Assembly: GCA_041671645.1 (NCBI GenBank)
Contig: JBAZBD010000001.1
Coordinates: forward strand, 85,561 to 149,560
Length of the DNA: 64,000 nt
DNA from: Patescibacteria group bacterium
GTDB taxonomy: Bacteria > Patescibacteriota > UBA1384 > XYA2-FULL-43-10 > 1-14-0-10-43-13
Direction: 5' to 3'
Shown: positions 6,446-55,230 of the stretch, piece by piece
How positions within the stretch are numbered: position 1 is the stretch's first letter
Layout of the letters: each line of letters opens with the position of its first letter
The notes under the pieces: generated by a model
Databases searched by the model: none
Seen by the model: the letters and a program-made list of their open reading frames with translations, nothing else
Told to the model about the DNA's origin: nothing
Position numbers and translations under genes: made by a program

Positions 6446-6483
6446 GATTGATAACTTTATACTTTTAACTTTATAGCTAGTTT

Positions 6484-13298: not shown

Positions 13299-13399
13299 TA
13301 CTTCGCCGAGCTGACCTTATAAATTTTGGCACGGCTGATCTGTTGCTGTACTTTGGTATCAATGTTATAATTTCCCTAGAGATTAATTTGGAGGGGATA

Positions 13400-18161: not shown

Positions 18162-18201
18162 GTTCATATTTCGATGATTTTAGGGTAAAATTATAGTAGA
18201 G

Positions 18202-18248
18202 AATTCTTAGTTAGTAGTTATTAATTTTTATTCAATTTTTAATTTATA
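18202..18248. repeat. AT-rich repeat family member flanking four-helix-bundle gene (left)
   Basis: aattcttagttagtagttattaatttttattcaatttttaatttata is about 85% similar to the 36782 repeat. Confidence 0.6.
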
Positions 18249-18611
18249 ATGTCAAACCCCGACATCTTAAATCTGGAAGAAAGAACCGCAAAATTTGGTG
18301 AGGCGATAATACATTTATGCCAAGAATCAAAGGTAACAATTATTACCGAGCCAATTATACGACAGATAATACGTTCAGCCACGAGTATCGGTGCAAATTA
18401 CATGGAGGCGAATGGGGCCTGCTCAAAGAGTGATTTTAGAAATAAAATCTTTATCTGCAAGAAAGAGACAATGGAGACAAAACACTGGCTGAGAATGCTA
18501 TCGTCAGCTTTACCAGACAAATCCGATGAATTGCGAGAGTTATGGAAAGAAGCGCAGGAGTTAACTTTGATATTTTCTAAAATTGCCGGGTCCTTAAAAT
18601 CTAAAAATTAA
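18249..18611 (+). CDS. Four-helix-bundle protein (23S rRNA intervening-sequence protein family, TIGR02436-like)
   Basis: QIIRSATSIGANYMEANGACSKSDFRNKIFICKKETMETKHWLRML matches the family core (SIGANxAEG...SKxDF...KE..ET..WL). Confidence 0.7.
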   Translation: MSNPDILNLEERTAKFGEAIIHLCQESKVTIITEPIIRQIIRSATSIGANYMEANGACSKSDFRNKIFICKKETMETKHWLRMLSSALPDKSDELRELWKEAQELTLIFSKIAGSLKSKN

Positions 18612-18655
18612 TAATTGATTAAAAAATAGAAATTAATAAATAAGAATTAATTTGA
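18605..18655. repeat. AT-rich repeat family member flanking four-helix-bundle gene (right, inverted and degenerate)
   Basis: Its reverse complement aligns to the left flank (aattctta...ttattaattt...caatt.ttaattt). Confidence 0.5.
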
Positions 18656-27700: not shown

Positions 27701-30700
27701 AACGGTAGCACTTATCAGCTTCTAACCAACTCGATCAAGCCAAAAACCTATATCAATCGAATTGGCGAGAATCTCATGGTCACTGCCGCCATTTCCAACG
27801 CCGCCACTCTGCTTGGGATTTCCGACGCGAAAGTTCAGGCAGCAGCCGGCGTCCTGGGTGCAATCAAGAACAATTTTGTCTGCGAGAAAAGCAAGATCAT
27901 CACCAGAGATAATTATCCATCAAACGGCGTTTCTGACGGACATTTTCTCTACGATGTGCAAGTAAACAATATCAAAAATGACTACTGGGAACAGTATCTC
28001 AGAACCGGCAAACATACTTATGACGATGTTGGCTTTCCCGTCTTGGTTTATGATGAGGTTGGCGCTGCAATCGGCTACTGTAGCGATGACACTTATGGCC
28101 AATTCGGCGAACTGTATACCAATCTTAATACCCTCTTCGGCTTCAATCTTGATGACAGGATGAATTTGCCGGAAGGCACGATCAGCAAAGTTCTATCTGA
28201 CCCCGACCACATCGTCGATAATATATTGAATATCGGACTCAGCAAACTTGACCAACAACTTGGACTTGACTATACCGTGGACGGTTCTTTCTCATTCAAT
28301 GGCTTCTGGAAAGCGACCTTTTACAAGGACGGCCAGAAGAAGGACGCAGAGAGAGAAAAAATCGACAGAAAGTGCTACAGCCAAAGTTATCCAGGGGGGA
28401 CAGACGTCGCCATCAAAACTCAGTATGACGCTGCCAACAACGATATTAAGCGATTGCTCGGAGAGTGGCCGGCCCGAGGAGCTTCACGGATCGAGGGCGA
28501 AAATTACCAGCAGTACTCGCAGAGAGTAACTTCTCAAGCCACTTTGGACGCCACTCACACTACTGAGATGCGGGACGCTTGGGTTAGCGATTGGGAAAAA
28601 TACAATCAGCAGGCTAACACTGCTAGCGGCAATATTACTATCCAAAACAATGCCTTTAATCAATGTAAGCTCGACAACAGGAAGCCAGTAAGTAACGCGG
28701 CGTTACGAGCAGATATTCTTGACTACGCCACCGGCCAACTTGTCACTTTGACTGGCAAACTACTGCGAGACGTTGTCGTTACGATTCCTGATTGCCAAAA
28801 CAATCGCGCCGCTTATCTTGACGGGGCAGGCAGCTATGACCCCGTTCTCTCCAACCAGCTTGATTATTTCGGCCAGCCTATTGGCTATGAAGAGTGCAAA
28901 GCCAAGGTCGGTGTTGTTGTTCCGAGAGAAGATTTGAAAGCACTTATCCAGGGCGACCTTCGCTATCTTTCCCCGATTGCCATGACAATCGCTTCAAACA
29001 TCGCCATGATACCGGTAGACATGTGGGGCACGGATAACTGCAATCCAGACGCCGATGGCCGATGTGAGAGTGCCGTTCCACCTCAATTCAAGCTCAGTTA
29101 CAACGACTACAAATATGCCATTTTTGGCAACGCTCAGTCCGACCAAGCGGCTCGGGACGTCGCCGCTTATAGTCACTTCAACTTAATTGAAAAAAACCCT
29201 GACGGCGTACGCATCAACTCAGGGCCGGAGTATCCTGTCTCTACTGATCCCTTCGACACGGGTCTTGGCATACTTTCAGATACCAGGGTGGCAAAAGTAG
29301 CGAATCAACCTGGCAGAGAGATTATCAACAACAAGACTGATATCTACACACAATACGGCTATACCCCAAGTAGTGCCGAGGCTGTCGATGCAATCAGCCA
29401 ACGAGCCGATTTGCAAAACAGCGTGGCCGACTTTGAAAACGCTTGCGGCATCAAGTATGGGCTTATCAGCAACAGCGCGGCGACTTGCCACAATGGGTCA
29501 CCAGAGTTTGCGGCCTATATTTCAGATAGAACTCAATTAACCGCACTAAGAGATAGGGAGACTGCGATTCTAGGCGAATCAAAGAACCTCTACCGAAACA
29601 ACTTGATGTACAAGGCGATAGACATAGCCGCCTGGAAACTTGATGGCAACGCCTATCCTGGATTTGCTCGCGCAATCGCAATCGGCACTCCCAAAATGAA
29701 GGCAGAGGCCCTTGTCACTTATCTCAAGATTGGTGCTCAGAGAGGCCATCTCTTCGGCATGGATTTCAGAGCAGTCAAAGATATCGAGCAGTGGGCCGGG
29801 GCCGCTCAATTTCTCTACGAGGCTGGGCAAAATATTCTTCGCGATACGGATACGTTTGACCCCCTAAGCACTCTTGCCAAGAATCCTAGCGCTCGATATT
29901 TCATCCAAGATTTTATCGTCTCTCGCTCAAAGGCCTGGTTTGGCTTCGAGATCCAACCAGACATGGCTGAGGGTATTATAGTCGGCATTGGTACTATGGG
30001 CTCAGCCGACCATCCTTGGGGCAATTGGGGGATCAAGGATGTCGGCATCGACAAAGTTTTTGAGGACCCGAACAACACGGGCGTCACTATTAATGTTGGA
30101 GGAGACAAGACAGTCCAGATGAAGACTCTGGGCGGAGCAACACAAGAGTATCTGGTCGACCGTCTTTTCTCCTGGGCCGACACCAAACTTGGTCTCGAGG
30201 CAGGCACTTCCTTCAAGCTCGCCAAGGGCATATATGACGCTTTCACTGCTTACGGCAAAGTATCTGCCGCCATCAAGGCCGCCAAGCTGGCTGGTTGGGT
30301 TGTGCCAAACTTGCCTCATACTGCCGCTGGCCTGGAAGCGATAGCCGACACTCTTTTCGATAAAGCAGACGCGTTAGCTTTGGATATAACAGACGCAGAA
30401 CTTTCGGCAAGCCTAACAGGGGCTGACGCTAACCAAATCGTTTATGAGAATACCGGATTTGATGGCGTAGACGCAGGAGAAAAAGCTGCCGAGGATGCCA
30501 AAGCTGCCTCTAAGACTATAAATACCGAGGGAACCAAATTCCAAGCTGCCAAAGACCTTGTTGCGGCCATAATCATTGAAATCTTAATTGGTAAAGCGCT
30601 TGGCAAAATCGTGGCCGGTTGGGAACAGGATCTTGGTATGATCCCTGGCACTCTGATGCCACTGGTTTCTGGTATTGTCACTTTCGTGTTTATCTTCGTC

Positions 30701-31282
30701 TGGAATACGGTGATGGCCACGATTGGAGCGGAGGTATTAATGCTATCCCAGGTGCCAGGACTTCAGTGGCTTGCTATAGCAATAGCCGTCATCGGTTTCA
30801 TTGGTGGGATGCTCTTTAGCACTAAATATTTCTACTGGTGTACTGCCGATGGATACTACCCAAGAGTTGGGTCTTTTGATTACAACAAGGACGTGGGTGG
30901 ATTTGGAGAAATAGGCGGACGAATCGATCGCGGCGCAGCCTTCTTGGGACCGCTCATGGCAACTTATGGCGTGAAAGTGGCACAATACAAAGCTCGCCAA
31001 TTGGTTGGCGACATGCTGGCTCTGCAAAACTCTCCTCGATTCAAAGATTCATATGGCGACGATATCGTACCAATCCAAATCATGACTGGTCGCAAAGTTG
31101 ATGTTGATTTCTGGAAAGAGAGCATTGATACCAATATGTGCAAGAAGATGCTTGATGAAGATTACATCGCCTGTGACGGCATGTGCGGCAAAGCGACTAG
31201 CGATGGCGGCTGTGTCAGTACTTCCCGTATGGGCGTCTGGGCCAATCCACAAACGATAGGCTGGACGCATATTGGATTTTAG
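21791..31282 (+). CDS. Giant (3163 aa) membrane-anchored surface protein
   Basis: Single uninterrupted ORF with an N-terminal hydrophobic signal/anchor and a C-terminal cluster of TM helices (GIVTFVFIFVWNTVMATIG, LQWLAIAIAVIGFIGGMLF). No recognisable catalytic motif; it is in an operon after the T4SS genes. Confidence 0.7.
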   Translation: MRDVKKFLQKFVFTLVALILVLNPYIELIPTDYFSSKAKAAINDIPDPEIASTDESDHDYEEEVDSDYTPEYSPNFIPDPVKDAFSLVVTDTTETFTDLTSTSSLLEDIGDAKIILTQSDFDAIKALRCMKNLLPPFAENMSKLYEFTIPEGIINSNEQYKNFPAKEEIDDAVSSEGSQATPRFGTPEEYLSYLKYGDSGDPLLTTNQNKEKFVNYVDSAKAYYGDDRLRADWLAQIDNLAENKTLDTDINTLACVTRITDAEQLMALIRESKTDETKRQYLLDRINESLDGLKIDIRAVKALIYLVTPKNKGGAGHWRIRVKKFLQTGRKSGESDALLTGAAKTVNCDPAKSAAECGMAQYQPGEATIEEKDGSAYTAYLESMNDGEQNDSMHQQGQAIDISEIDDIRCTIRKEVKQWGNVKGQNTPQPTRPIKLAWQTTEGFNKSEGANDFDMMSLIKSMATSEVVDFLGSINETDMSDYEGDLTRASFGDLVNVVGKSLMTEILASPDHNLKGYSTDSTLRNLGGIYIADYLGINRKLFTDKHINTPGDLFYEIGRGAIETRMKLPLNSLDTTNPAVPLFSTLAQTGTRKLEYELGLANGDLARLDPNSVASIYIGARVIEGTLNFKKFVWPSQDKPFAEFASTAEGLNWFDLLRLSPDTIDMMLHLKSGVTEALVKGKTLTPAQYDKMMKLPEGTTTESVKMNSDRYASIVGQVRLDETTFGFQYFAANDAAFSLPTGLWAEVIKFSPDTLQQSLAEVGIYTLSRLFGEDDASPLPKLEVGEQVVSIQTHEYGKDVTFQANDGNFGRWVFRSWLRDNLTKSTEEACQAPARPIEVDVSFDQAGAQQPNPNSLLDVQATFGTNVFKPVSLALDYQVTYNPAANGIPQPSKTLTKDVSEIRPISEEKATKYGFVNRDLQRIFGCASANGRDVYQRIGSELLYTALINQALSETDRAKIDIMDTDPTIHVANEEINFYIQRIFYIKKLLGQIDTQYGSIVSEGKDDIKSFVDLSKLSYDQLKQVYGDLTNLQLFSISKIAATASQTMTDIDTLKQVASDWKEYMRTRRADLVGDIAAVNQIVYLVNELWTTIAELDRGKAINGVDRIKFQQIDSTPLQEVVNQDRRQQAQERSDSAKKKGLSAWQVAQMMFDWIAGTITSSELFYRLGANSIEANIGLPPNSLVYLVRNYDQNGISGLDAFYQSVGQARIEENFGMPAFYFQGNFDAQAKPNFQSDLKAVYNMITTDSVLKHDYPDLAALSEADFLKYMDSLLTAPMLDYAADPWIQLIRTPGSPYSISSEPKTPGDDLNAYKAFYKKIADSQKAYTKSTAHWQAIVDNVDKRWKAKRASDVKGLGSSKYSESTVQDIVANIKQRCFTGVNKAQADGTVKCLNMTRSPEDDLLFRMGLPRGNFNAMTAENSVNNTSLWTRLAGTTQSIEQGFTIDQNAIKALFTGEDTRYINLSRKEKQVVEGSALKINTNVLSFYAQMLNGEVLPNDTDQYNLDTWTQYYVSNPYAPKQQASETCPVLYLPKGDASGTFMVNETTLENNSYCYYDAKGRHCFKSWDEAQRYAIAHEADSIRHLKVVIDGKEQEISNNILGYLANQLVLANNAALPDQATTDAAANANVTIHGTIELNLSDVYAGLVRFVNDNSMVDIFGDKNKSIAMISAIAGSTTVPASILEKLFTREPSVNSVATFKKKVGVKEAQKVVTYQIFGALQLGLAVGPDYFDAGDLYDVLNGDYTALTNIATNYIDLKAELKPGTTRLLYEARNPESITCALAQAGGSMLGRIFGLNNIPLNGIQNVSSFKEAVGQAKVEETLSLPRGTFRGNNLYELLDNVGPINFMIAFKIPVDPSVANGISDDIDKILNSNTSYSQGANLAYRLTRVRDVLSTRNILQSDIGTAIANINSALKNYFINDLLKQFENDPTKIQVALSARNQNNRDWYYAVQDFYQQTSSLDKTFAVSNGSTYQLLTNSIKPKTYINRIGENLMVTAAISNAATLLGISDAKVQAAAGVLGAIKNNFVCEKSKIITRDNYPSNGVSDGHFLYDVQVNNIKNDYWEQYLRTGKHTYDDVGFPVLVYDEVGAAIGYCSDDTYGQFGELYTNLNTLFGFNLDDRMNLPEGTISKVLSDPDHIVDNILNIGLSKLDQQLGLDYTVDGSFSFNGFWKATFYKDGQKKDAEREKIDRKCYSQSYPGGTDVAIKTQYDAANNDIKRLLGEWPARGASRIEGENYQQYSQRVTSQATLDATHTTEMRDAWVSDWEKYNQQANTASGNITIQNNAFNQCKLDNRKPVSNAALRADILDYATGQLVTLTGKLLRDVVVTIPDCQNNRAAYLDGAGSYDPVLSNQLDYFGQPIGYEECKAKVGVVVPREDLKALIQGDLRYLSPIAMTIASNIAMIPVDMWGTDNCNPDADGRCESAVPPQFKLSYNDYKYAIFGNAQSDQAARDVAAYSHFNLIEKNPDGVRINSGPEYPVSTDPFDTGLGILSDTRVAKVANQPGREIINNKTDIYTQYGYTPSSAEAVDAISQRADLQNSVADFENACGIKYGLISNSAATCHNGSPEFAAYISDRTQLTALRDRETAILGESKNLYRNNLMYKAIDIAAWKLDGNAYPGFARAIAIGTPKMKAEALVTYLKIGAQRGHLFGMDFRAVKDIEQWAGAAQFLYEAGQNILRDTDTFDPLSTLAKNPSARYFIQDFIVSRSKAWFGFEIQPDMAEGIIVGIGTMGSADHPWGNWGIKDVGIDKVFEDPNNTGVTINVGGDKTVQMKTLGGATQEYLVDRLFSWADTKLGLEAGTSFKLAKGIYDAFTAYGKVSAAIKAAKLAGWVVPNLPHTAAGLEAIADTLFDKADALALDITDAELSASLTGADANQIVYENTGFDGVDAGEKAAEDAKAASKTINTEGTKFQAAKDLVAAIIIEILIGKALGKIVAGWEQDLGMIPGTLMPLVSGIVTFVFIFVWNTVMATIGAEVLMLSQVPGLQWLAIAIAVIGFIGGMLFSTKYFYWCTADGYYPRVGSFDYNKDVGGFGEIGGRIDRGAAFLGPLMATYGVKVAQYKARQLVGDMLALQNSPRFKDSYGDDIVPIQIMTGRKVDVDFWKESIDTNMCKKMLDEDYIACDGMCGKATSDGGCVSTSRMGVWANPQTIGWTHIGF

Positions 31283-31287
31283 CGGTT

Positions 31288-31308
31288 CTTCCCCTTTTGA
31301 AGGGGAAG
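31288..31308. terminator. GC-stem hairpin terminator after giant gene
   Basis: cttcccctt-ttg-aaggggaag has a 9-bp stem. A near-identical copy is at 39521-39541. Confidence 0.55.
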
Positions 31309-31408
31309 TTAGATGGGGTTTATAATAAGCCTCACCTACCCTCTGCTTGCCGGCCGTAGCCTTGGCGAAGGCTGGCCACTCTGCCACTCGTTCTGTTACA
31401 ATCTATTC

Positions 31409-35662: not shown

Positions 35663-35928
35663 GATTATCCAATCGGTTATTTCCTAGTCGTAGAAAATAT
35701 AACAAGTTATCCACAAGGAGCGCAATGGTAGGGGCTTCGAGGCATTTATAATCAGCTTCCAGCCGATTGAATTGTTAATTTCTAATTACCCCCAAAGGGG
35801 AGCCTTCGGCTTAATTTCCAATCAATTTATATTTATTAATTAATAATTGAATAAAAATTAAGAACTAAAAAATAAGAATCACTGATTGGGTTGATTTTCT
35901 CTCATCTTTCTGTTATTATCCCTCTGTT
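35663..35928. promoter_or_regulatory. dnaA-rpmH divergent intergenic region with consensus DnaA boxes (dnaA promoter/second oriC module)
   Basis: A perfect TTATCCACA lies at 35707-35715 and TTATCCAAT at 35665-35673. The region also contains the mini-hairpin motif and the AT-rich repeat. Confidence 0.6.
35821..35868. repeat. AT-rich inverted repeat, left copy (flanks rpmH-rnpA-yidD)
   Basis: 35834-35868 is the exact reverse complement of 36782-36816 (35/35). The match extends with one or two mismatches to roughly 48 bp. Confidence 0.8.
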
Positions 35929-36754: not shown

Positions 36755-36781
36755 AGACGAAAGTAGTAAGTTTTTAGTTTC

Positions 36782-36829
36782 TAGTTCTTAATTTTTATTC
36801 AATTATTAATTAATAATTATAAATTGATT
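36782..36829. repeat. AT-rich inverted repeat, right copy
   Basis: tagttcttaatttttattcaattattaattaataa. See the partner at 35821-35868. Confidence 0.8.
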
Positions 36830-36862
36830 AGAAATTAGAAACTAATAAATAGAAATTATTTT

Positions 36863-37747
36863 ATGAAACAATTCTTTTTCGTTCTTCTCTATCAACCGCT
36901 CTACAATTTACTTATCTTCTTGGCTTGGTTGGTGCCGGGACACTCTATCGGTTGGTCAATTATCGTCTTGACCATCCTGATCCGGCTTGCCCTTCTCCCC
37001 TCCTCGCTCAAAGCGGCTCATTTTCAGGCCAAAAACAACAAGCTTCAGCCTCATGTCAACAAAATTCGCAAGGAGATTACCGACAAACAGGAGCAGACCA
37101 AAGCGATCATGGAGCTTTACAAAACTGAGGGTCATTCCCCTCTCGGCTCCTGCCTACAATCGCTGATCCAACTGCCGGTCTTGATCGTGCTCTACAATGT
37201 ATTTCGTAGCGGGTTGAACGAAACAGGATTCAAAGACCTATACTCTTTCACCCCTCATCCTGACACGGTTAACACTATGTTCTTCGGTATGAATATAGTT
37301 CACCCAGATCTTTGGGCGCTACCAATTATCGCTGCTGTGCTCCAATTTGGTTTGTCATACCTCATGATGCCAAAGAAAATCGAAGGCGCACCAGATGATC
37401 CAGCCGCCGCTATGAGCAAACAGATGCTTTTCTTGGGCCCGATTATCACCCTATTCTTCGGCCGAAGCATGCCAGCCGCCTTGGTAATTTACTGGATTGT
37501 AACGACTCTATTTAGTTTGGTTCTCCAATATTTCGTCAACAAGCAGATACATGCAACTCCGCTAGTTCGAGATGGCGGCAAGGCTTTGCCAGCTCCAAAA
37601 GTGGAAAAAGCAGAGAAGATAGAGCCCGTCAGAATCGAAAAGCCAAGCAAGAAAGAAATGCTTTATAATATCATGAACAAACGCCTCGACAAAAAAGAGA
37701 AGAAGTCGGGTGTCAATGTGACTGTGCGCACCAAGAAGAAATGGTAA
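36863..37747 (+). CDS. yidC: Membrane protein insertase YidC (short form)
   Basis: IVLTILIRLALLP and LQPHVNKIRKE followed by QLPVLIVLYNVF are conserved YidC/Oxa1 motifs. Five TM segments and a basic C-terminal tail. Confidence 0.85.
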   Translation: MKQFFFVLLYQPLYNLLIFLAWLVPGHSIGWSIIVLTILIRLALLPSSLKAAHFQAKNNKLQPHVNKIRKEITDKQEQTKAIMELYKTEGHSPLGSCLQSLIQLPVLIVLYNVFRSGLNETGFKDLYSFTPHPDTVNTMFFGMNIVHPDLWALPIIAAVLQFGLSYLMMPKKIEGAPDDPAAAMSKQMLFLGPIITLFFGRSMPAALVIYWIVTTLFSLVLQYFVNKQIHATPLVRDGGKALPAPKVEKAEKIEPVRIEKPSKKEMLYNIMNKRLDKKEKKSGVNVTVRTKKKW

Positions 37748-38667: not shown

Positions 38668-39497
38668 ACGAGAAAACTACCAAATCTCTTCCGGTCTGGT
38701 TTTTCACCAATGAGAAACTTGGCCAATTTTTTGCAAAAAATGAACACAATCAACCGATCGAAAGAGTTTACGCAATTGGTGGAGCTGGCGATTTCGCCTT
38801 CTCGCTTCTGGCACAAGACGTACGAAACAAGATTAAAGAAATTGATCTTTGTGATATTAGACCGATGGCAAATGTGACAATTGATCTCAAAATCGCGCTA
38901 TTTAAGAATTATGATTTATCACAAATTAAAAGTTTGTTTTGGGGTCGAAGCGAAGATACGCTCGGCTCTATTTACGCTAAATTGAAGTCAACGCTTCCGC
39001 CTGCGGTGCTAAGTGCGGTCAAAAAAAGCGGGGCGGGGAAGTTTTCCGAAAGTTTGAAAAAATCAGGTTTGTGGTACAGGGAAAGTTGGCGAAAAGCCAA
39101 GGATGTTGAGGGCTATCTCCCCTATCTCTCCTCGGAATCGAACTATCGCCTGATGCAGAAAAATCTAGATAAAATTGTGATTCACGAGGGTGATTTTAAT
39201 GATAATCTTAAGTCTGCCGGCGATGGATATTACGACCTGATTTATTGCTCAAATATCTTGGATAGTGAGACGTACTGCAAATTTCCCGACCAGTATCTGC
39301 AAAATATCCAGGCAAAGCTAAAGGACGGCGGCATTTTATTTGTCCTTACTCAAAATAATCCGAAAAAGATGATCAAACTGATTGAAAAGCAGGGCATTCA
39401 TTCACTAAGATCGGAACTGCACAAATTCTCCCCTCTATCTCTCTTGTCCAATCATTATTCGTACTCAATTCTACTTTTTCAAAAAGCGGAAAGGTGA
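38664..39497 (+). CDS. Hypothetical protein, possibly class I SAM-methyltransferase fold
   Basis: Weak motif-I-like VYAIGGAGDFAFSLL, DLIYCSNIL and GGILFVLT. Start overlaps the upstream gene's stop. Confidence 0.35.
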   Translation: MNEKTTKSLPVWFFTNEKLGQFFAKNEHNQPIERVYAIGGAGDFAFSLLAQDVRNKIKEIDLCDIRPMANVTIDLKIALFKNYDLSQIKSLFWGRSEDTLGSIYAKLKSTLPPAVLSAVKKSGAGKFSESLKKSGLWYRESWRKAKDVEGYLPYLSSESNYRLMQKNLDKIVIHEGDFNDNLKSAGDGYYDLIYCSNILDSETYCKFPDQYLQNIQAKLKDGGILFVLTQNNPKKMIKLIEKQGIHSLRSELHKFSPLSLLSNHYSYSILLFQKAER

Positions 39498-39520
39498 GGT
39501 TGGAGATAAACCCCTTCTAG

Positions 39521-39541
39521 CTTCCCCTTGAAAAGGGGAAG
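39521..39541. terminator. GC-stem hairpin (cttcccctt-gaaa-aggggaag)
   Basis: 9-bp stem downstream of the 38664-39497 gene. It is paralogous to the hairpin at 31288. Confidence 0.5.
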
Positions 39542-39555
39542 AACTACTCTGTCCC

Positions 39556-41235
39556 TTGGACACTTCGTTGTTGTATAATGAATTTATGGTTGATATCAAC
39601 AACACAATTAGCTTTCTGACGCGGGAGCAGGAGGAGAGGCACACCAAAGAAACCGCTGCTAAGCTCAAGCTTCCCTATATGAATCTGGTCAATTACCCGA
39701 TCGTCAAGGAGGTTTTGGAAGTCATCCCAGAGGAGGATGCGATTGCTTACCAAGTCGCGCCATTTCTGAAGGTGGGGCATCAGATTAGGATAGGGATGGT
39801 TGACCCAACAAATGAGAAATCTAAGGCATATTTGAGCAAAATCGCTGAGGAAAAGAATGTTTCTTTTGCCGTCAGTTTGGTCTCCAAGACCAGCTTCATC
39901 TTTGGTGTCTATGCTTACGAACAGATCAAAACCAAAGCGATCGAAACAAAAGCAGAAGAAGAAAAACGAAAAGAAGATAATTCTTTCTACAATATCAAAG
40001 ACATCAAGGGCGCGGCCGAGGCGGCCAAGACGGCTACGATCACTCGGCTCCTTGAGACGATCCTCTTTGGTGCGATCAATCTGGGCGCTTCTGATGTTCA
40101 CTTGGAGCCGGCTGAAAACAAGTTTTTAGTCAGACTCCGAATAGATGGTGTGCTTCAGGATCTAGTAGACTTACCCTTACAAAAATATAAGCAGCTGCTC
40201 CAACGTATTAAGTATGTGGCCAAGCTCCGAATGGATATTACGGACAAACCGCAGGATGGACACTTCTCACTGGCTAGCCCGGACAACAAAAGTCTTGATT
40301 TTCGTGTTTCTACTATGCCATCAGCTTCAGGCGAAGCAGTCGTGCTCCGTCTCCTTAACATGGAGGGAGATTTCTTGAAGCTCGAAAATATGGGCTTTCG
40401 CCCGGATGCGCTGGTGGCGATTCGAGAGGCAATAGGCCGCCCACATGGCATGGTCATCACTTCTGGCCCGACAGGATCGGGCAAGACCACAACTCTCTAC
40501 GCACTTCTTTTGGAGATCAAAAAGCCAGGGGTCAAAATAATTACATTGGAAGACCCAGTAGAGTTCAAGATGGAAGGGATCGAACAGAGCCAGATCAAGC
40601 CTGGACAGGGCTACGAATTTGCCGATGGCCTCAGGGGCTCGATGAGACAGGATCCAAACGTCTTGATGGTAGGAGAGATTCGAGACTTGGAAACGGCGGA
40701 AATCGCCATCCAGGCCGCTCTGACGGGGCATTTGATGCTCTCTACCATCCATGCCAACTCTGCGCCAGCCGTCTATGCCCGCTTCCTCGAGATGGGGGTC
40801 AAGCCTTTTCTTCTGACTGGCTCACTCAACATTATTATGGCTCAGCGCTTGGTTCGTCGAATTTGCAAAGATTGCGCCACTCAATATGAAGCTTCCGACA
40901 AAGACTGGAAAGCGATCGTGGATATCTTGTCTCCTATCGTCGAACGACTGGATCCCGCAATTGCGGTCAAACTTGAAAACGGCCAGAGGACACTTTTCCA
41001 GGCCAAAGGTTGCTCAGTTTGTAGTAGTACTGGCTATGTTGGGCGAGTGGCAGTAGTCGAATATATTGTGCCAAATGATACAATCGAAGGCCTTGTAACA
41101 TCAGGAGCTTCTATATCAATGTTCGACAAAGAAGCCCGCAAGGAGGGTATGATTACGATGGAGCAGGACGGCCTGATCAAAGCTCTTGCTGGTATTACAA
41201 CGCTAGATGAAGTCTGGCGCGTCACGCGCAGTTAA
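39556..41235 (+). CDS. pilB: Type II secretion/type IV pilus assembly ATPase (GspE/PilB family)
   Basis: N-terminal GspE_N-like domain, Walker A GPTGSGKTTTLYALL, Asp/His boxes (MVGEIRDLETAEIAIQAALTGHLMLSTIHAN) and a tetracysteine motif (CKDC...CSVC). Confidence 0.85.
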   Translation: MDTSLLYNEFMVDINNTISFLTREQEERHTKETAAKLKLPYMNLVNYPIVKEVLEVIPEEDAIAYQVAPFLKVGHQIRIGMVDPTNEKSKAYLSKIAEEKNVSFAVSLVSKTSFIFGVYAYEQIKTKAIETKAEEEKRKEDNSFYNIKDIKGAAEAAKTATITRLLETILFGAINLGASDVHLEPAENKFLVRLRIDGVLQDLVDLPLQKYKQLLQRIKYVAKLRMDITDKPQDGHFSLASPDNKSLDFRVSTMPSASGEAVVLRLLNMEGDFLKLENMGFRPDALVAIREAIGRPHGMVITSGPTGSGKTTTLYALLLEIKKPGVKIITLEDPVEFKMEGIEQSQIKPGQGYEFADGLRGSMRQDPNVLMVGEIRDLETAEIAIQAALTGHLMLSTIHANSAPAVYARFLEMGVKPFLLTGSLNIIMAQRLVRRICKDCATQYEASDKDWKAIVDILSPIVERLDPAIAVKLENGQRTLFQAKGCSVCSSTGYVGRVAVVEYIVPNDTIEGLVTSGASISMFDKEARKEGMITMEQDGLIKALAGITTLDEVWRVTRS

Positions 41236-41258: not shown

Positions 41259-41290
41259 AAAAAACCGTCTCAGTTATAAGACGGTTTTTG
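41259..41290. terminator. Bidirectional terminator hairpin
   Basis: aaaaaaccgtct-cagttata-agacggttttt lies between convergent pilB and the pilin-like operon. Confidence 0.75.
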
Positions 41291-41332: not shown

Positions 41333-41653
41333 TTAACTTATCAGATTAACGACTGCAATTATCATAACATAAGATAATGCAATGATGATCAAGCCAATAA
41401 CAGCGTTCAGTATACCCTGCATGCCTTTCTTGGCTGACTCTGCATTTCCGCCAGCGGTCAAGTAAAGAAAGCCGCCGATGATCAGAAAGACGAATGCGAT
41501 AATAGCACCTATTCCTGCTGACCAATTAAGAATATTCACTGCTATCGATTGGAACCCAGTATCACCCGCAACCGGTTGAACGAATTTTAGAACAGGAAAA
41601 GTGTTCGCTGGTGCTGTTGGATCCGCTGCTAAAACTTTCTCGATTAGATTCAT
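41333..41653 (-). CDS. Pilin-like two-TM hairpin protein, paralogue 1 (VirB2/TrbC-like candidate)
   Basis: Roughly 45-aa hydrophilic N-terminus, then TM1 (GIGAIIAFVFLIIGGFLYLTAGG), loop NAESAKKGMQG and TM2. It shares the motif F/Y-x-T-A-x-G-(N/D)...AKK...G-L with four neighbouring genes. Confidence 0.5.
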   Translation of the reverse strand: MNLIEKVLAADPTAPANTFPVLKFVQPVAGDTGFQSIAVNILNWSAGIGAIIAFVFLIIGGFLYLTAGGNAESAKKGMQGILNAVIGLIIIALSYVMIIAVVNLIS

Positions 41654-41717
41654 AAATCCTCCGTTAATTATTTTGTTTATTATATTTTAAAACTTTTGGG
41701 ACAACCTAGTCAATAGC

Positions 41718-42047
41718 CTATTTGCTCAGCAACCACAGAAGGGTAGTAAGAGTTATCCATGAAAGCGAAATCACAACCAGGCCAACTACAGAGTTGATGA
41801 TGCCCTTCACTGCCTTCTTGGCTGATTCTGCGTTTCCGGCGGCGGTCATGTATTGAAAGCCAGAGACAATGAATACCACGAATGCGATAAAAGCTGCTAC
41901 TTCGCAGGTTATAGTGAAGACCGTGTTTATTTGGGTCGTAATGATGCTCAAATAGCTACCCCCCACTTCCGCGTCAGACCTGACAGGGTTGTCCAGCTTT
42001 AGCGGGTTAAGATCGATAGCCAATACCTTTTCGATAATCGTATTCAT
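41718..42047 (-). CDS. Pilin-like two-TM hairpin protein, paralogue 2
   Basis: The QYMTAAGNAESAKKAVKGIINSVVGLVVISL motif is shared with the neighbours. Confidence 0.5.
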   Translation of the reverse strand: MNTIIEKVLAIDLNPLKLDNPVRSDAEVGGSYLSIITTQINTVFTITCEVAAFIAFVVFIVSGFQYMTAAGNAESAKKAVKGIINSVVGLVVISLSWITLTTLLWLLSK

Positions 42048-42049
42048 AG

Positions 42050-42388
42050 CTAAAACACTTTCTGCGCCAAGATTCGGATCAGACTAGCCAAGCCAACTAT
42101 CGCCAACCCTCCTATCGACCAGAGCAGGGTTTTCTTGGCCGTTTCGGCCTTGGCATCTTCTCCAAAGGACGTGACATATAGGAAACAGCCCCAAAGGAAC
42201 ATGGCGAACGCGACGATACCAGCAAAGGATATTGCCATCACTACGAACGAATTGGCTGCGCTATTGATAGTGTTGAGGTCTTTGTTTGTGTCAATCCCAT
42301 TGAAATCACAAAGGAAATCACTGAGGGTGGAAACACCATCTCCCTTTATTTCTGCACATTTTGTAGCGTCTATGATGGGGCTGGCCAT
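42050..42388 (-). CDS. Pilin-like two-TM hairpin protein, paralogue 3
   Basis: FLYVTSFGEDAKAETAKKTLLWSIGGLAIVGL. It is translationally coupled, starting 2 nt after the upstream stop. Confidence 0.5.
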   Translation of the reverse strand: MASPIIDATKCAEIKGDGVSTLSDFLCDFNGIDTNKDLNTINSAANSFVVMAISFAGIVAFAMFLWGCFLYVTSFGEDAKAETAKKTLLWSIGGLAIVGLASLIRILAQKVF

Positions 42389-44229
42389 TATTTAAATCTC
42401 TTTATTATATTTACTACAAACAATATTATCGTATACGACAGGGTTCCTGCAACAAGGCCAACAATTAGGTAGATCGCAGATTTCTTGGCTTGCTCTACCT
42501 TCTTGTCGTCCCCAGCGGCGGTCAAGAAGAGGAAGCCGGTAAAGAGGATACCGATCAGGGCGCCGGCGCCAATCAGTATCATCAGTATTCCTGGGTGGGT
42601 AGCGTCTTTGCCAAAGAGGCTGTTGTAAAGGTCGCCGATTTTGTGAATAGTGCCACCGACGAGTTTGCTGGAGTTGAGCACGATTTTCTTGCTGGTCCCG
42701 CCAGTAGTACCTCCAGTAGTACCTCCAGTTTCCTGCTTAACTGGCTGCTTGATCAAAGATTTTCCTGGTAGGCAATCATCTGGGCTTAAGTATACCCAAC
42801 CGACAGAGCGATCTGCGCTCCATGTTTCGCCGATTGTGGAACTGTTTGCTGTAACGGTTACTACCCCGTAGTGGGCTCCGTTGTTGGGATCAGCCTCGGC
42901 CTGGCTTATTCCTGTCTTTCGCTTGAGGAGTTTGACAGTAGCTTCGTGGTAATAAGGCTCAGAAGTGTTGGAAAAAGTGTGAGTGAACTCGGGATTGAAG
43001 GTGTAGGAGTTGTAATTATCAAGTGTTTGGAAATCGCAGATCCAGTTTTGGCCTTCCCCTGAGCATGCCGCTCCTGAGTCGTCGAGATGGCTCCTCAAAG
43101 TGGGATTGTCTCCAGGAGTGATGGAGTAGCCCTTGTAGCTGATGTACATCTTGACAATATATTCTGAAGGATCCTTCGGTTTTTCTGGTAGAGTGACGTT
43201 GACGTTGACGGTAAGATCCCTGTTGGTGGCACGAATCATACAGGCGTTGTAGACTTCTCTTCCGTTGAACCTGACGTCCAGTCTCGGCTGGCTTATGTTC
43301 GGAGCGTACTCTTCCCCCGCGTTTGTGAGAGTGTAATAGGCTGGCGGAGAGTCCCATCTAGTACCATTGCCATCTAGGAAATAACCCTTAATGGCGTATG
43401 CCCCCGTTGCCAATCCGCTGAGATCTGACCAGCTAGCGGTGCATGATCCCCTGATGGTGTCGCTGGTTGTGTCATCAACATTACGATTGGTATAGAGCCA
43501 GGAAAATTCTGAGTCATCGGCGTTGCCATCTGTTCCTGGCTCGTCTGATCTCATAATTACGCAATCTGTCAGAACGGGAACGATTGAAGTCGATGTGAGG
43601 GACAAGGGCATGTCGATATTTACTGATGATGTTGTTGCTATGTCGATTGTCTGGTTCGACGGTAGATAGGCAGAACCGAGCGCATCTTGCGAAATCGGAT
43701 CTTCTGGTGGAAAATCTGGGGTGTCGGCGACACAATAGTAGGTGTCATCGGGATAATTATCGCAATAATTAGCGTCATAGGGGTTTATTACTGTTACCCA
43801 GTTCGAATCTCGTGATACTGGTACAGGATTACCCTCCTGGTATAACTCGGCTGTAAACTGGTATTGGTTGTCGGGGGTAAATTCGTCTGTGGTCCATGAT
43901 CCAGAGCAATATTGGTTGCTGTCTGTGACATCCACGTATATCGACCACTCATCGGTGACGTCTAGACCAAACTGTGTCCCGTTTTCAACATAGATGTAGC
44001 ACTCGTAATTTGGATCAGATAGCTCACCATCGGGTAAATTAAAATCCGTCCAAAAATCCACAGTTTCTCCAGCGTATATCTCCTGCGGGTCGCCGTAGAC
44101 TAATATCGTCGGTTGATCCTCTGCTCTCGCTGGAGTCACGAAATAAGCTGATCCTAGGAATAGGAGACAGGTGATGAAAACAATTCTAATAATTTTTCGA
44201 GAAATTTTCATCAAGATTTGGCTGGACAA
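42388..44229 (-). CDS. Secreted 613-aa protein with large N-terminal extracellular domain fused to a C-terminal pilin-like two-TM domain
   Basis: Signal peptide (ITCLLFLGSAYFVTPARAED), a roughly 500-aa Cys/Asp/Asn-rich ectodomain and a GGTTGGTTGGTS linker. The C-terminus GILMILIGAGALIGILFTGFLFLTAAGDDKKVEQAKKSAIYLIVGLVAGTLSY matches the neighbouring small proteins. Confidence 0.6.
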   Translation of the reverse strand: MSSQILMKISRKIIRIVFITCLLFLGSAYFVTPARAEDQPTILVYGDPQEIYAGETVDFWTDFNLPDGELSDPNYECYIYVENGTQFGLDVTDEWSIYVDVTDSNQYCSGSWTTDEFTPDNQYQFTAELYQEGNPVPVSRDSNWVTVINPYDANYCDNYPDDTYYCVADTPDFPPEDPISQDALGSAYLPSNQTIDIATTSSVNIDMPLSLTSTSIVPVLTDCVIMRSDEPGTDGNADDSEFSWLYTNRNVDDTTSDTIRGSCTASWSDLSGLATGAYAIKGYFLDGNGTRWDSPPAYYTLTNAGEEYAPNISQPRLDVRFNGREVYNACMIRATNRDLTVNVNVTLPEKPKDPSEYIVKMYISYKGYSITPGDNPTLRSHLDDSGAACSGEGQNWICDFQTLDNYNSYTFNPEFTHTFSNTSEPYYHEATVKLLKRKTGISQAEADPNNGAHYGVVTVTANSSTIGETWSADRSVGWVYLSPDDCLPGKSLIKQPVKQETGGTTGGTTGGTSKKIVLNSSKLVGGTIHKIGDLYNSLFGKDATHPGILMILIGAGALIGILFTGFLFLTAAGDDKKVEQAKKSAIYLIVGLVAGTLSYTIILFVVNIIKRFK

Positions 44230-44240
44230 GCTATTATTTT

Positions 44241-44570
44241 TTACGAAATATTGAATGTGGGCATGCCTAGGAAATCGAGGATCATGCCAAGGGTCAAAAG
44301 CAGGACGTATCCAAGGAGCGTGCCCATGAAGACGTCTTTGGCGGTGTTGATCTTGGTATTATCTCCCTGGGAGGTCATATATACGAAGCCGGCGTAGATA
44401 ATCATGAGGACCGTGAGAGTGCCACCGAGCTTGAGGGCAAATTGATAAATAGCATGGACGTATTCGCCATAGTCAAAATTATCCTTCCCATCTATCTTGA
44501 GACCGACTTGCACTCCGGCTTGGGCAGCATTCACCAAATGAAAACCAATTTTTTCTATCACATTTACCAT
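44241..44570 (-). CDS. Pilin-like two-TM hairpin protein, paralogue 4
   Basis: VYMTSQGDNTKINTAKDVFMGTLLGYVLLLTLG. It overlaps the upstream lipoprotein gene end by a few nt. Confidence 0.5.
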   Translation of the reverse strand: MVNVIEKIGFHLVNAAQAGVQVGLKIDGKDNFDYGEYVHAIYQFALKLGGTLTVLMIIYAGFVYMTSQGDNTKINTAKDVFMGTLLGYVLLLTLGMILDFLGMPTFNIS

Positions 44571-45934
44571 GTTTCTTTCCTGAGTAAGACAGTGATATTG
44601 TCAGCGGCTTGGTTGAGAGCGGCCTGGGCTGTTAGTGTTCCCTTGTTCACCGCCCTGATGGCGTTGCGCATATTGGCGTCGAAATCCCCAGGGTAGCGAC
44701 CCTTTTGAAATGCTTTGGCTGTCGCGAGCTCTAATTTCTCAGGATTATTCCCAGTTCTGTTCTCTATGCCTATTTCGTATGAATCGTACTTGTAGGAGCC
44801 ATAAAGTCTTGAGGCGGATGTAATATTACTAGAATATGTCGTAGCTAGGCCATGTACTACATTCCAAGCTATGGCTGAGTTGGGGGTGATAGCGCTGACA
44901 CCAAATGCGTTGAATCTAGCATAGTCAATAATCTTATCTGGTTCAGTGTTAACCTGTGGCACATAGGTAGTAGCATAATCTTTAAAGGTAGGATATTTCT
45001 GGGCGAACACATTGAGTAGTCGATCATAACCGAAGAGGATGGCAACTTTGCCGTTAACGAAGGCTTCGACATCATTGCCCATCGATTCATTCCAGGTATA
45101 GTTGGCACCCTTGGGATTGGCAAATGAAGTGTAGAATTCGAGTGCCCTCTTGCCAGGGACTTCTTCGGTGCCGACTGGAGTACTGCTCGGTAGGCTGAAC
45201 ATGGCCAATTTGAGATCGTCAGAGAGGATCTTGGTCTCGTTTTGGAGCATGAGAAGATAGAGAATATCCTGTGGATAGGAAACATTGTCAGAGCCAATGG
45301 CCGCTCCCGCTATGCTAATATTGTCGCCATCTCGCTTGGTCAAGTATGGCATTGCTTCGGCAAAATTTGTCCAGGTATTGGGGACGGGGTCGAACATCTT
45401 CGAGATTCTCTCATATGTGACACCACTGACAGTGCTTTTCTCAAGATCAGACAGTGCTTGTCGGATCAGGCTGGGATTGTAGTACACAATCATCGGCTCT
45501 GCTGAAGCAGATAGGGCGTAAATATTATTATCAATCTGGACACTTTGTTTGATCGATTGAACATAGCCCTCATCCATATTGACCTTGCTGGTGATAGCGG
45601 TAGGAGCAGGGACCAGTTTATCCTTGTGGCGGTAGACCCAATCATTCGGCATAGACCAGACATCGGGGCCGGTACCGGAAAGCTGAGAGTTTAGGACCTT
45701 GTTCTCATAGGCGGCGTCGAGGGTCTGTTGGACGTACTCCATAGTGTAGCCCTTGTTGGTCGACTCGAAGTCCTTGACGATTGGTTTCCAGACGTCGGGA
45801 TCCTCAAAGCTCCAGACTATGACCTTGGTGGCTCGTGCGTCTGTGGTGCTGGTTTTCTTGGTACAGCCCGACAGCGCCACAGTAAAAAAGGCCATCATCA
45901 CTGCATAGCTGGCGAATTTAAGAAATCGTTTCAT
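44564..45934 (-). CDS. Lipoprotein, extracellular solute-binding protein family 1 (sugar-type ABC substrate-binding fold)
   Basis: Lipobox ALSGC after an N-terminal signal (start MKRFLKF at 45934). VWSFEDPDVWKPIVKDFE and PDVWSMPNDWV are typical of SBP_bac_1. No permease or ATPase genes are adjacent. Confidence 0.6.
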   Translation of the reverse strand: MKRFLKFASYAVMMAFFTVALSGCTKKTSTTDARATKVIVWSFEDPDVWKPIVKDFESTNKGYTMEYVQQTLDAAYENKVLNSQLSGTGPDVWSMPNDWVYRHKDKLVPAPTAITSKVNMDEGYVQSIKQSVQIDNNIYALSASAEPMIVYYNPSLIRQALSDLEKSTVSGVTYERISKMFDPVPNTWTNFAEAMPYLTKRDGDNISIAGAAIGSDNVSYPQDILYLLMLQNETKILSDDLKLAMFSLPSSTPVGTEEVPGKRALEFYTSFANPKGANYTWNESMGNDVEAFVNGKVAILFGYDRLLNVFAQKYPTFKDYATTYVPQVNTEPDKIIDYARFNAFGVSAITPNSAIAWNVVHGLATTYSSNITSASRLYGSYKYDSYEIGIENRTGNNPEKLELATAKAFQKGRYPGDFDANMRNAIRAVNKGTLTAQAALNQAADNITVLLRKETW

Positions 45935-46082: not shown

Positions 46083-46970
46083 TTACAGTTTTCCGGCGAT
46101 CTCTTTGATAAACTGCGAAAAATCACCGTTTATGTCCGGCCTCTTCAGCGCCATCTCAACATTTGTTTTCAGATATTGAGTGACATTACCACAATCATAA
46201 TATTTTCCACCCTTTATTTCAACAGAGTAGGCATCGTTCCCCCGCTCTCTCAACTTGTTGACGCCGTCGATGTAGACCAATTCCCCACCCGGTTTGACTT
46301 CACGGCCCGCTTCTTCGAGAGCGTCAAAAATTTCTGGTGGGAAGACATAGCCGCCAAGGCTGGCATAGTCGGATGGTTTGTTGTCGTCGCCTGGTTTCTC
46401 AATCAACTCTTCGATCTTCATAATCCCGTCTTCTACCGTATGACCCTTGGTGAAGCCGTATTTCTTACCATCTCCTGGGCTGTTCATGATGAGTGAGGCA
46501 ATAATGGTGCTTTGGTATTTGTTGTAAGCCTCGACAAGCTGCTTGGTCTTGAGTGGGTCAGAGACGAGGAGCTCGTCACCCCAACAGACGACAAAAGGTT
46601 CGTCGCCAACAACATTCTTGGCGGTCAAAATGGCGTCGCCATTCCCCTTTTGCTCCTTTTGTCTGACAAAGACAAACTCTGCCATCTTGGAAAGATTTTT
46701 GATCTGCTCAAGTTGCTCCATCTTGCCCGATTCGGCAAGCTTGTTCTCAAGCTCTAGGTGGCGATCGAAATGGTCCTCTATCGCCCGTTTGTGCCAGCCG
46801 GTGACTAAGATAATTTGTTCAATTCCAGAAGCGACCAATTCCTCAACCACATATTGGATCACTGGCTTGTCTACAATCGGTAACATCTCTTTGGGCATCG
46901 CCTTGGTCCATGGCAAAAATCTTGTGCCATAGCCAGCGGCAGGAATAACAGCTTTTCTGACAGGTTTCAT
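46083..46970 (-). CDS. galU: UTP--glucose-1-phosphate uridylyltransferase
   Basis: KAVIPAAGYGTRFLPWTKAMPKEMLPIVDKPVIQYVVEE is the canonical GalU N-terminus. Confidence 0.9.
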   Translation of the reverse strand: MKPVRKAVIPAAGYGTRFLPWTKAMPKEMLPIVDKPVIQYVVEELVASGIEQIILVTGWHKRAIEDHFDRHLELENKLAESGKMEQLEQIKNLSKMAEFVFVRQKEQKGNGDAILTAKNVVGDEPFVVCWGDELLVSDPLKTKQLVEAYNKYQSTIIASLIMNSPGDGKKYGFTKGHTVEDGIMKIEELIEKPGDDNKPSDYASLGGYVFPPEIFDALEEAGREVKPGGELVYIDGVNKLRERGNDAYSVEIKGGKYYDCGNVTQYLKTNVEMALKRPDINGDFSQFIKEIAGKL

Positions 46971-54583: not shown

Positions 54584-55147
54584 CTAATTGGCGCGTTCGA
54601 CGTAAGATCCGTCGCGAGTGTCGACCACGATTTTGTCACCTTCTTTGATAAAGATTGGGGTGTCGATAATGGCATCAGTCTCGATGGTGACTCTCTTGGT
54701 CACGGCTGAAGCGGTGTTGCCTTTGACGGCTGGAGGAGCGGAAGTAACCTTGAAAATCATTTTGATTGGCAACTCAATGTCCAAGGCCTCATTGTTGAAA
54801 TAAAGAATATCGACGTTTGAATTTTCAATCAGATATTGTTTCTGGCTTCCGATCTTGGAGGCAGGGATAGTGAATTGGTCGAAGGACTGATTGTCCATGA
54901 AGTAAGCCTCATCTTCATCGGAATAGAGGTAGAGGGCAGTTTTCTTGGAGAGATCGGCTTCATCAACTTTGTCAGCTCCCTGAAAGGTCTTGTCGACGGT
55001 GGCGCCAGTGCGAAGATTCTTGATCTTAGTCTTGACGACTGCGCCGCCTCGTCCCTGCTTGGAATGGTAATAGGAAATAACGACGAAAGGATCACCTTCC
55101 ATCGTAAATTTGGTTCCTGTTTTGAGATCGGTAATTGAAAGCATCAC
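54584..55147 (-). CDS. efp: Elongation factor P
   Basis: MLSITDLKTGTKFTMEGDPFVVISYYHSKQGRGGAVVKTKIKNLRTG is the canonical EF-P N-terminus with the KQGRGG loop. Confidence 0.9.
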   Translation of the reverse strand: MMLSITDLKTGTKFTMEGDPFVVISYYHSKQGRGGAVVKTKIKNLRTGATVDKTFQGADKVDEADLSKKTALYLYSDEDEAYFMDNQSFDQFTIPASKIGSQKQYLIENSNVDILYFNNEALDIELPIKMIFKVTSAPPAVKGNTASAVTKRVTIETDAIIDTPIFIKEGDKIVVDTRDGSYVERAN

Positions 55148-55149
55148 AA

Positions 55150-55230
55150 AAAATTTCTAATTAATAATTATTAATTTCTAATCAAATTCTAATTCTCAAT
55201 TATTAAAAATTAGAAAATGAAAATTAATAA
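55150..55230. repeat. Related AT-rich repeat (ctaattaataattattaatttctaat...) between efp and rpsR
   Basis: It shares the ATTAGAAATTAATAAT-type core with the 36806-36856 extension. Confidence 0.45.

Follow-up and report, generated by a model that had tools for sequence, protein, structure and literature searches.

A probable type IV secretion system pilin operon led by a solute-binding lipoprotein gene in a Berkelbacteria-like Patescibacterium

To which surface machinery do five tandem genes for two-helix, pilin-like membrane proteins belong when a lipoprotein gene precedes them and a PilB-type ATPase gene converges on them? The question is raised by a locus on contig JBAZBD010000001.1 of a Patescibacteria genome, of which a stretch of 64,000 nucleotides (nt), called the window below, was analyzed; all coordinates refer to it. 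The pilin-like genes are called A to E, and the lipoprotein is a solute-binding protein (SBP). We regard it as likely that the locus is the pilin operon of a chromosomal, conjugation-derived type IV secretion system (T4SS) of the mating-pair-formation (MPF) FATA-like class in a Berkelbacteria-like Patescibacterium, working by the mechanism set out below. The parts of this reading differ in strength. It is highly probable that the locus is a PF18895 pilin array of a Patescibacteria T4SS, and the formation of an actual pilus by these pilins is slightly favored. The core of the system is of an already known kind. The SBP-led operon, the four fixed pilin classes, and the pilin with a hypervariable ectodomain are possibly new variant features. 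They bear on the function of the essential Patescibacteria T4SS, which is needed for the epibiotic lifestyle.

The operon, its pilin family and the secretion system

The six genes were found as co-directional open reading frames (ORFs) on the minus strand, where the initial annotation had placed them. The SBP gene comes first (44564-45934). It encodes 456 amino acids (aa) from an ATG, and a second possible start, a TTG at 45973, is also open. It is followed by pilin E (44241-44570, 109 aa, two transmembrane (TM) helices), pilin D (42388-44229, 613 aa, TTG start), pilin C (42050-42388, 112 aa), pilin B (41718-42047, 109 aa), and pilin A (41333-41653, 106 aa). The intergenic distances are −7 nt (SBP/E), 11 nt (E/D), −1 nt (D/C), 2 nt (C/B), and 64 nt (B/A). 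With such tight spacing on one strand, the six genes look like a single operon. Gene A has the only clear GGAGG ribosome-binding site among them. The 64-nt gap before it contains a promoter-like site (41684-41713, minus strand) consisting of TTGACT, an 18-nt spacer, and TAAAAT, recognized solely by its match to 10 of 12 consensus positions.

All five pilin-like proteins exceed the gathering threshold (26.6 bits) of the Pfam family PF18895 (T4SS_pilin). The scores are 41.2 (A, the top family score), 39.6 (B), 33.7 (C), 27.9 (D), and 27.5 bits (E), with E-values from 1.7e-10 to 3.4e-6; D and E are barely above the threshold. The matches span positions 3-67, 5-66, 4-67, 16-67, and 11-71 of the 71-position hidden Markov model (HMM) in A to E, respectively. 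In D, the match covers residues 549-601, within a C-terminal pilin module of approximately residues 514-613 (nt 42388-42690, minus strand). A profile of the five modules retrieved 699 database homologues, one of which carries the NCBI record name 'pilin [Candidatus Berkelbacteria]'. Nearly all of them match PF18895, and many match PF04956 (TrbC/VirB2) as well. PF04956 is present in the relatives P0133, P0158, and P0160 and in the pilin of locus L012 (P numbers denote homologues, and L numbers denote comparison contigs or loci).

The five-module alignment has invariant F, T, G, G, and L residues, the motif (F/Y)xT(A/S)xG(N/D/E), and a basic loop with the sequence GGNAESAKKG; the loop signature of pilin C is FGEDAKAETAKKTLLW. 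Hydropathy analysis gives two hydrophobic segments and a short basic loop in A, B, C, E, and the C-terminus of D. The common C-terminal module that had been proposed for the five genes is thus borne out, far beyond chance, by the PF18895 matches and the alignment motif.

The proposal that these proteins are of the VirB2/TrbC type and not type IV pilins also holds. It agrees with the PF18895 scores, with the predicted fold, and with the lack of a prepilin signal. In an AlphaFold2 model of A (79 sequences), residues 1-34 are disordered and are followed by two helices, 35-65 and 71-105, with predicted local distance difference test (pLDDT) values above 90. The model has neither beta structure nor a globular head. 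A Pfam scan of A-E gave no type IV pilin or N_methyl match, and a regular-expression search found no class III prepilin signal (G↓F/M-T-L-x-E) in any of the five. Type IV pilins were rejected because this signal and an alpha/beta head are absent. When the five-module profile was compared with PDB sequences, only spurious matches to designed 'Pizza' repeat proteins appeared, with no significant stretches.

The proteins can be compared with two known pilin groups. Like the VirB2/TrbC/TraA pilins of diderms (PF04956), they are small and have two hydrophobic helices, a short basic loop, and a predicted topology with both ends outside. Unlike them, they have no PF04956 match, most of them lack a long classical signal peptide, and their host is a monoderm; the window also lacks the VirB5, VirB7, VirB9, and VirB10 of diderm T4SSs. 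The best NCBIfam match for A-D is NF045849 (E-values 3e-8 to 3e-4), the pilin-like family of Mycoplasma integrative conjugative elements (ICEs), to which Mbov_0395 and MMCAP2_0565 belong. The Mbov_0395 family comes from an MPF-FATA-type system of a wall-less monoderm, a class related to the Patescibacteria VirB4 (PMC12102498).

The N-termini of A, B, C, and E are short and weakly hydrophobic (e.g., MNLIEKVLAA) and end in AxA-like sites. The leader of B begins MNTIIEKVLA, and that of E ends in AAQA↓G. In the window, such short leaders are encoded at 41624-41653 (A), 42018-42047 (B), and 44541-44570 (E). About half of the small pilins among the homologues P0121-P0226 likewise have no classical signal peptide and share the start M-x-[LIF]-I-E-K-[VA]-x-A-A. 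First-position pilins begin with MVNxIDKxGxxLxxTAHA. Judging from these sequences, the conserved start motif may form a short leader of an unusual kind that is cleaved at an AxA-type site.

A Gram-positive-type T4SS cluster lies on the plus strand at 7-31 kb, on the opposite side of dnaA from the array. It encodes a VirB6-like protein with five TM segments and a faint TrbL match (9691-12501, 936 aa; E 0.13), a PrgI/VirB3-like protein (13289-13819, Pfam PrgI), a 328-aa protein between PrgI and VirB4 (13825-14811), a VirB4-like ATPase (14780-16714, Pfam P-loop_TraG and AAA_10), and a cell-wall hydrolase (16716-18161, Pfam SLT and Amidase_2). The cluster ends with an ORF of 3163 aa without a Pfam match (21791-31282). 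The plus-strand segment 9691-18161 is the presumed assembly machinery of the pilins. The order beyond the cluster is DciA, recF, dnaN, dnaA, rnpA, yidC, two small genes, PilB, and then the pilin operon. The same T4SS gene order is found in L012, L046, and L047.

Arrays of this kind have been described. McLean et al. 2018 (10.1101/258137) reported 4-6 small VirB2-related proteins arrayed beside VirB4/VirB6 in Saccharibacteria (TM7x). Wang et al. 2023 (PMC10633639) found that a predicted pilin series in the T4SS cluster of Southlakia epibionticum (SEML1_0006-0019 region) is essential. Quinonero-Coronel et al. 2025 (PMC12102498), who applied PF18895 and PF04956 to 3,035 genomes, detected VirB2-like genes in 1,948 VirB4-positive assemblies. 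Their 441 arrays contain 2-11 genes with a mean identity of 25%, and the T4SS is frequently near dnaA and dnaN. In that study, two or more pilin genes with an i-Evalue < 0.001 and an HMM coverage > 50% form an array when they are in tandem or have one non-pilin gene between them; the genome must also encode a VirB4-containing T4SS, with the pilin genes no more than 20 coding sequences from virB4. The window has five consecutive pilin genes, and a VirB4-containing T4SS lies within 20 coding sequences of them; by our own count, about 15 genes and about 25 kb, across the replication origin, separate virB4 from the array. The claim that the combination is not a described system therefore fails for its core.

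What the window shares with the published Patescibacteria arrays is PF18895, a tandem of divergent two-helix proteins, a position near dnaA/dnaN, and VirB4/PrgI/VirB6 within about 15 genes. It differs from them in that the array is split from the T4SS cluster by the origin region, stands beside PilB, is led by an SBP gene, includes one member with an ectodomain of about 500 aa, and falls into four positional classes. An SBP leader gene, an ectodomain-pilin fusion, and four positional classes are not mentioned in the limited set of papers and supplements that was searchable. Likewise, SBP_bac_1, PF01547, and Berkelbacteria are not mentioned in the searchable part of the PMC12102498 supplements.

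The solute-binding lipoprotein and its link to the pilins

The first protein of the operon matches PF01547 (SBP_bac_1) with 32.7 bits against a gathering cut-off of 26. Its translation contains the lipobox LSGC (MKRFLKFASYAVMMAFFTVALSGC), which fits the pattern [LVI][ASTVI][GAS]C. Genes for an ABC (ATP-binding cassette) permease or ATPase were found neither among the window ORFs scanned nor among the called genes of L002-L009. The earlier description of an operon headed by an SBP lipoprotein with no permease nearby is therefore correct. Full-length homologues of the SBP (n = 191) with 45-76% identity come from Berkelbacteria-like metagenome-assembled genomes, and its orthologues come from Candidatus Berkelbacteria. 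Many aromatic residues are invariant, and the nearest solved structures are sugar-binding SBPs, with weak matches (4qrz, E 3e-5).

The gene order is conserved. Five more genomes with SBPs of 47-60% identity have a ComF-like gene, HSP20, GalU, the SBP, a pilin array, a convergent PilB, and yidC. Scanning one genome per GTDB species, we obtained 33 loci and counted a locus as testable when it had at least 400 nt downstream of the SBP gene. A pilin gene directly follows the SBP gene in all 29 testable species loci. VirB4 was not found within 10 kb of these SBP-array loci.

Does this order reflect a function shared with the pilins? The SBP may be the ordinary binding protein of an ABC importer whose permease is encoded elsewhere, and a mere inherited neighbor of the pilin genes. 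We consider this possible, if doubtful. Orphan SBP genes are common, and the protein of the window is a well-conserved member of SBP_bac_1 whose many invariant aromatics are typical of sugar binders. The order of ComF-like, HSP20, and GalU genes is also kept in the Berkelbacteria-like genomes. Since flanking housekeeping genes are equally conserved there, synteny alone overstates the functional link. However, in the window the SBP gene and the first pilin gene have 7 nt in common, and overlaps between the called genes are seen in L007, L008, and L009 as well. Moreover, a locus from Andersenbacteria carries a gene for an SBP_bac_1 lipoprotein (lipobox LLGFGC), only 27% identical to that of the window, which overlaps the first of seven pilin genes in a wholly different neighborhood. 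Neither PilB nor VirB4 is nearby in that locus. Three arrays of other lineages, which lie in divergent orientation beside VirB4/TraC-like/PrgI/TrbL_3 clusters, have no SBP. The SBP link thus depends on the lineage and is not universal.

The SBP gene, translationally coupled to the pilins, in every testable genome of the clade and again in a second lineage, is a concrete lead. If the SBP is a partner of the pilus, it would be the first genetic link of a T4SS pilus with solute capture. If it is a mere hitch-hiker, the locus is an ordinary additional example of a catalogued array.

Two precedents exist for an SBP with such machinery. On the Enterococcus plasmid pCF10, the SBP lipoprotein PrgZ is encoded alongside a conjugative T4SS of the Gram-positive type. 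It is an OppA-type peptide binder (SBP_bac_5), whereas the window protein belongs to SBP_bac_1. In the archaeal bindosome (Bas system), sugar-binding proteins are assembled by a PilB-like ATPase. Bindosome SBPs carry class III signals and depend on this ATPase, whereas the window SBP has a lipobox; a bindosome was rejected for this reason.

Directly upstream of the SBP gene, on the same strand, is a gene for a GalU-like nucleotidyltransferase (46083-46970). A GalU-like gene precedes the SBP gene in 30 of the 33 Berkelbacteria-like loci (L013-L045); two of the others are truncated at the SBP end, and none was found in L040. It is not at that position in the Andersenbacteria locus. A link of this gene to glycosylation of the surface apparatus is possible.

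Positional classes, the ectodomain-pilin fusion and pilus formation

The C-terminal modules of nine genomes, including loci whose SBP is only 32-39% identical to that of the window, cluster in four orthogroups that follow gene position. These are P1 (E), P2 (D), P3 (C), and P4 (A and B). Class P1 always comes next after the SBP, and E is grouped with the first pilin of eight other genomes. Since the positional orthogroups are kept across nine genomes, the paralogues are old and specialized and not interchangeable. Recent duplication is seen only in class P4. The four fixed classes suggest a heteromeric structure and argue against a pure antigenic-variation array.

The P2 member of the window is the ectodomain-pilin fusion. 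By hydropathy analysis, D has a Sec signal peptide (aa 1-36, ARA↓ED) and C-terminal TM segments. A beta-rich ectodomain (approximately aa 37-500) and a Gly/Thr linker (GGTTGGTTGGT) lie between the signal peptide and the pilin module. A copy with a secreted N-terminal domain of about 500 aa, as first described, is thus present. The AlphaFold2 model of D, made from a 6-sequence alignment, is poor (pLDDT 41) and all-beta before the terminal helical hairpin; it was too poor for a fold search. A word-index homology search with full-length D gave no match. In an exhaustive HMMER search against 1.84 billion representatives, the matches to D were almost confined to residues of about 500-613, and the ectodomain has no confident homologues beyond a few very divergent ectodomain-pilin fusions. 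These results have to be read with care. The word-index search missed D itself, and D was not its own top match among the representatives, though the gene is called on contig L001 (607 aa); indexing or low complexity is the likely cause.

In genomes whose SBP shares 60% identity with that of the window, the counterparts of the ectodomain share only 22-28%. The second-position pilin is long in most genomes (about 330-1200 aa by ORF estimates), usually with an ectodomain of 300-1200 aa, and short in two. Further ectodomain-pilin fusions in the family are P0386, P0358, P0320, and P0297, and ectodomains sit on different pilin classes in different genomes. The fast-evolving fusion is a candidate host-range determinant. 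The recurrence of bAvd-like genes near such loci prompted a search for a diversity-generating retroelement (DGR) as a source of the ectodomain's hypervariability, but the window contains neither a reverse transcriptase nor a template/variable repeat. The 23S_rRNA_IVP or bAvd-like genes, which encode four-helix bundles, are at 18249-18611 (plus strand) in the window, 13293-13655 in L004, 7579-7938 in L007, and 461-871 in L010. In several genomes they are inside or beside T4SS and pilin loci. In L002 and L003, a reverse-transcriptase gene is also present, some 7 kb upstream.

The mechanism that we propose is as follows. The pilins would insert in the membrane so that their two termini face outward and the basic loop faces the cytoplasm; the topology would be fixed by the D ectodomain, which lies behind a Sec signal peptide. 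After removal of the leaders, VirB4 and the VirB6-like protein would pull the pilins from the membrane and polymerize them, and the resulting short pilus or extension of the channel would touch the host cell. Class P4 (A and B) would be the bulk subunit, with A as the candidate major subunit, since this class is the best conserved, has undergone duplication, and combines the strongest ribosome-binding site with, possibly, a promoter of its own. E, D, and C would be minor subunits, and D would display its rapidly diverging, beta-sandwich-rich ectodomain as a host-specific adhesin. The SBP, co-produced with the pilins and held in the outer leaflet by its lipid anchor, would most likely bind a host-derived, carbohydrate-like ligand at the contact site. 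Such a ligand is proposed because the nearest structures are sugar-binding SBPs and many aromatic residues are invariant. Binding could serve uptake via a permease encoded elsewhere, or adhesion. The convergent PilB would serve a type IV pilus system distinct from the T4SS. In a recent review, the Patescibacteria T4SS is discussed, as a speculation, as a possible conduit for the uptake of host molecules (PMC12857230). The T4SS of the window could be such an import or contact-feeding device, in which the D adhesin-pilin docks and the co-expressed SBP captures a sugar-like host metabolite, a thought that we put forward as distinctly unlikely.

Several observations weigh against this reading. Of the two T4SS pilin models named in the initial annotation, PF18895 is passed by all five proteins and PF04956 is matched by none at E <= 1. 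The scores for NF045849 do not reach its 40-bit cut-off (A 27.3, B 33.1, C 20.5, and D 21.4 bits), and E has no match to it. Fold searches with the hairpin of A were non-specific and matched many unrelated proteins, so the fold agrees with VirB2 and is no proof of it. A, B, C, and E have N-tails of 35-45 residues and no classical hydrophobic signal peptide to take these across the membrane. In the Berkelbacteria-like lineage, the array is about 25 kb from virB4 and beside PilB, not adjacent to virB4. The equally conserved flanking gene order within Berkelbacteria weakens the link between the SBP and the pilins, and one Andersenbacteria locus is the single independent support for this link. Finally, we infer polymerization, since no T4SS pilus has been seen in any Patescibacterium; a possible Gram-positive pilus is called an exciting open question (PMC12857230).

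The last point leads to another explanation. The two-helix modules could be membrane anchors or channel components, with D a hairpin-anchored surface protein and no pilus at all. Gram-positive T4SSs normally have no pili (PMC10633639, PMC12102498), and ectodomains on different pilin classes in different genomes are what a generic anchor would give. The family also contains 'poly-pilins', P0241 (501 aa), P0249 (606 aa), and P0270 (820 aa), with 6-8 tandem T4SS_pilin-like modules per polypeptide, each repeat carrying a YAGFxYxTSxGD motif. The fit of such concatemers in a pilus is not obvious, and they are awkward as helical-pilus units. We consider the anchor or channel role unlikely, however. 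The fixed order of four classes and a loop motif that is strongly conserved speak for specific packing between proteins and not for a generic anchor, and the family overlaps PF04956 TrbC/VirB2, whose members polymerize. The pilin series is essential in S. epibionticum (PMC10633639), and in Patescibacteria enrichments T4SS pilins rank among the unknown genes with the highest expression (PMC10936435).

The paralogues could also be a variation cassette of recent, interchangeable pilins for antigenic or host-range variation. Such a role of pilin variation has been suggested for Patescibacteria (PMC12102498) and proposed for Bartonella and Anaplasma. The window paralogues are 15-47% identical to each other, comparable to the published average of 25% (PMC12102498), genes A and B share a 131-nt DNA repeat with 72% identity, and the D ectodomain evolves very fast. 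Each position, however, has its own orthogroup across nine genomes, which makes the duplications old and the copies non-interchangeable. The P4 duplication is the only recent one, and the window has neither a DGR-type repeat nor a reverse transcriptase. A variation cassette is therefore very unlikely.

The PilB neighbor and the origin region

The convergent neighbor of the operon (39556-41235, plus strand) encodes a PilB/GspE-family ATPase with a T2SSE score of 382 bits. Its NCBIfam matches to PilB and GspE are below the equivalog cut-offs. Between the stops of gene A and PilB lies a bidirectional, intrinsic-terminator-like hairpin (41259-41289), AAAAAACCGTCTC-agttata-AGACGGTTTTT. Regarding the shared terminator claimed at the outset, the hairpin is visible and folds on both strands, although an automated search for terminators did not pick it up.

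PilB is convergent with the array in every Berkelbacteria-like locus that has enough downstream sequence. Arrays in L011, L012, L046, and L047 have no PilB nearby. The initial emphasis on this ATPase is probably misplaced, since related arrays elsewhere adjoin VirB4 clusters or stand without PilB. Because yidC, rnpA, and dnaA are equally fixed beside it, the position of PilB looks like lineage-wide synteny, and its convergence is probably inherited gene order and not a functional partnership. The three VirB4-adjacent arrays without an SBP are followed by HSP20 and a ComF-like gene, a flank in common with the window. From this common flank it seems that array and T4SS cluster once lay side by side and that the PilB neighborhood is a later development in this lineage. 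That the adjacent PilB-type ATPase assembles the pilins into a new filament, with PilB, array, and SBP forming one bindosome-like system, has in its favor the common terminator, the constant convergent position, and a match to the bindosome ATPase BasE (NCBIfam, E 1.6e-10) that reaches 40 bits against a cut-off of 1000, but is extremely improbable, given that neither the pilins nor the lipobox-bearing SBP have a class III signal, that PilC, PilD, PilM, PilT, or any other type IV pilus gene was not found among the window ORFs scanned, that three of the four arrays without PilB abut VirB4 clusters, and that yidC, rnpA, and dnaA are as conserved in position.

An integrative conjugative element was considered for the T4SS cluster and rejected. 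Neither a relaxase nor a coupling protein turned out to be encoded by the window ORFs scanned, and the cluster is at the origin as in other Patescibacteria. A tyrosine recombinase gene (5486-6499, minus strand), with Phage_integrase and a SAM-like N-domain, lies just upstream of the cluster and may encode XerC/D or be what is left of an integrative element. The 3163-aa protein at the other end of the cluster has an N-terminal signal or anchor segment and three hydrophobic segments near its C-terminus, and may be a giant surface protein or a T4SS effector.

Two kinds of repeats were noted in the window. An inverted repeat of 65 nt with 80% identity (31285-31349 and 39480-39544) contains the hairpin CTTCCCCTTTTGAAGGGGAAG. 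Its arms flank the 8.1-kb origin segment, from DciA to a methyltransferase gene, that divides the T4SS cluster from PilB and the pilin operon. Possible explanations are a terminator element present twice and a rearrangement that left this trace. An AT-rich intergenic element, TTATTAATTAATAATT, occurs in direct and inverted copies at 18195-18250, 18594-18672, 35812-35879, 36762-36870, and 55122-55206. A 67-nt pair of it with 93% identity flanks the dnaA-rnpA intergenic region, and these repeats may be origin or promoter elements.

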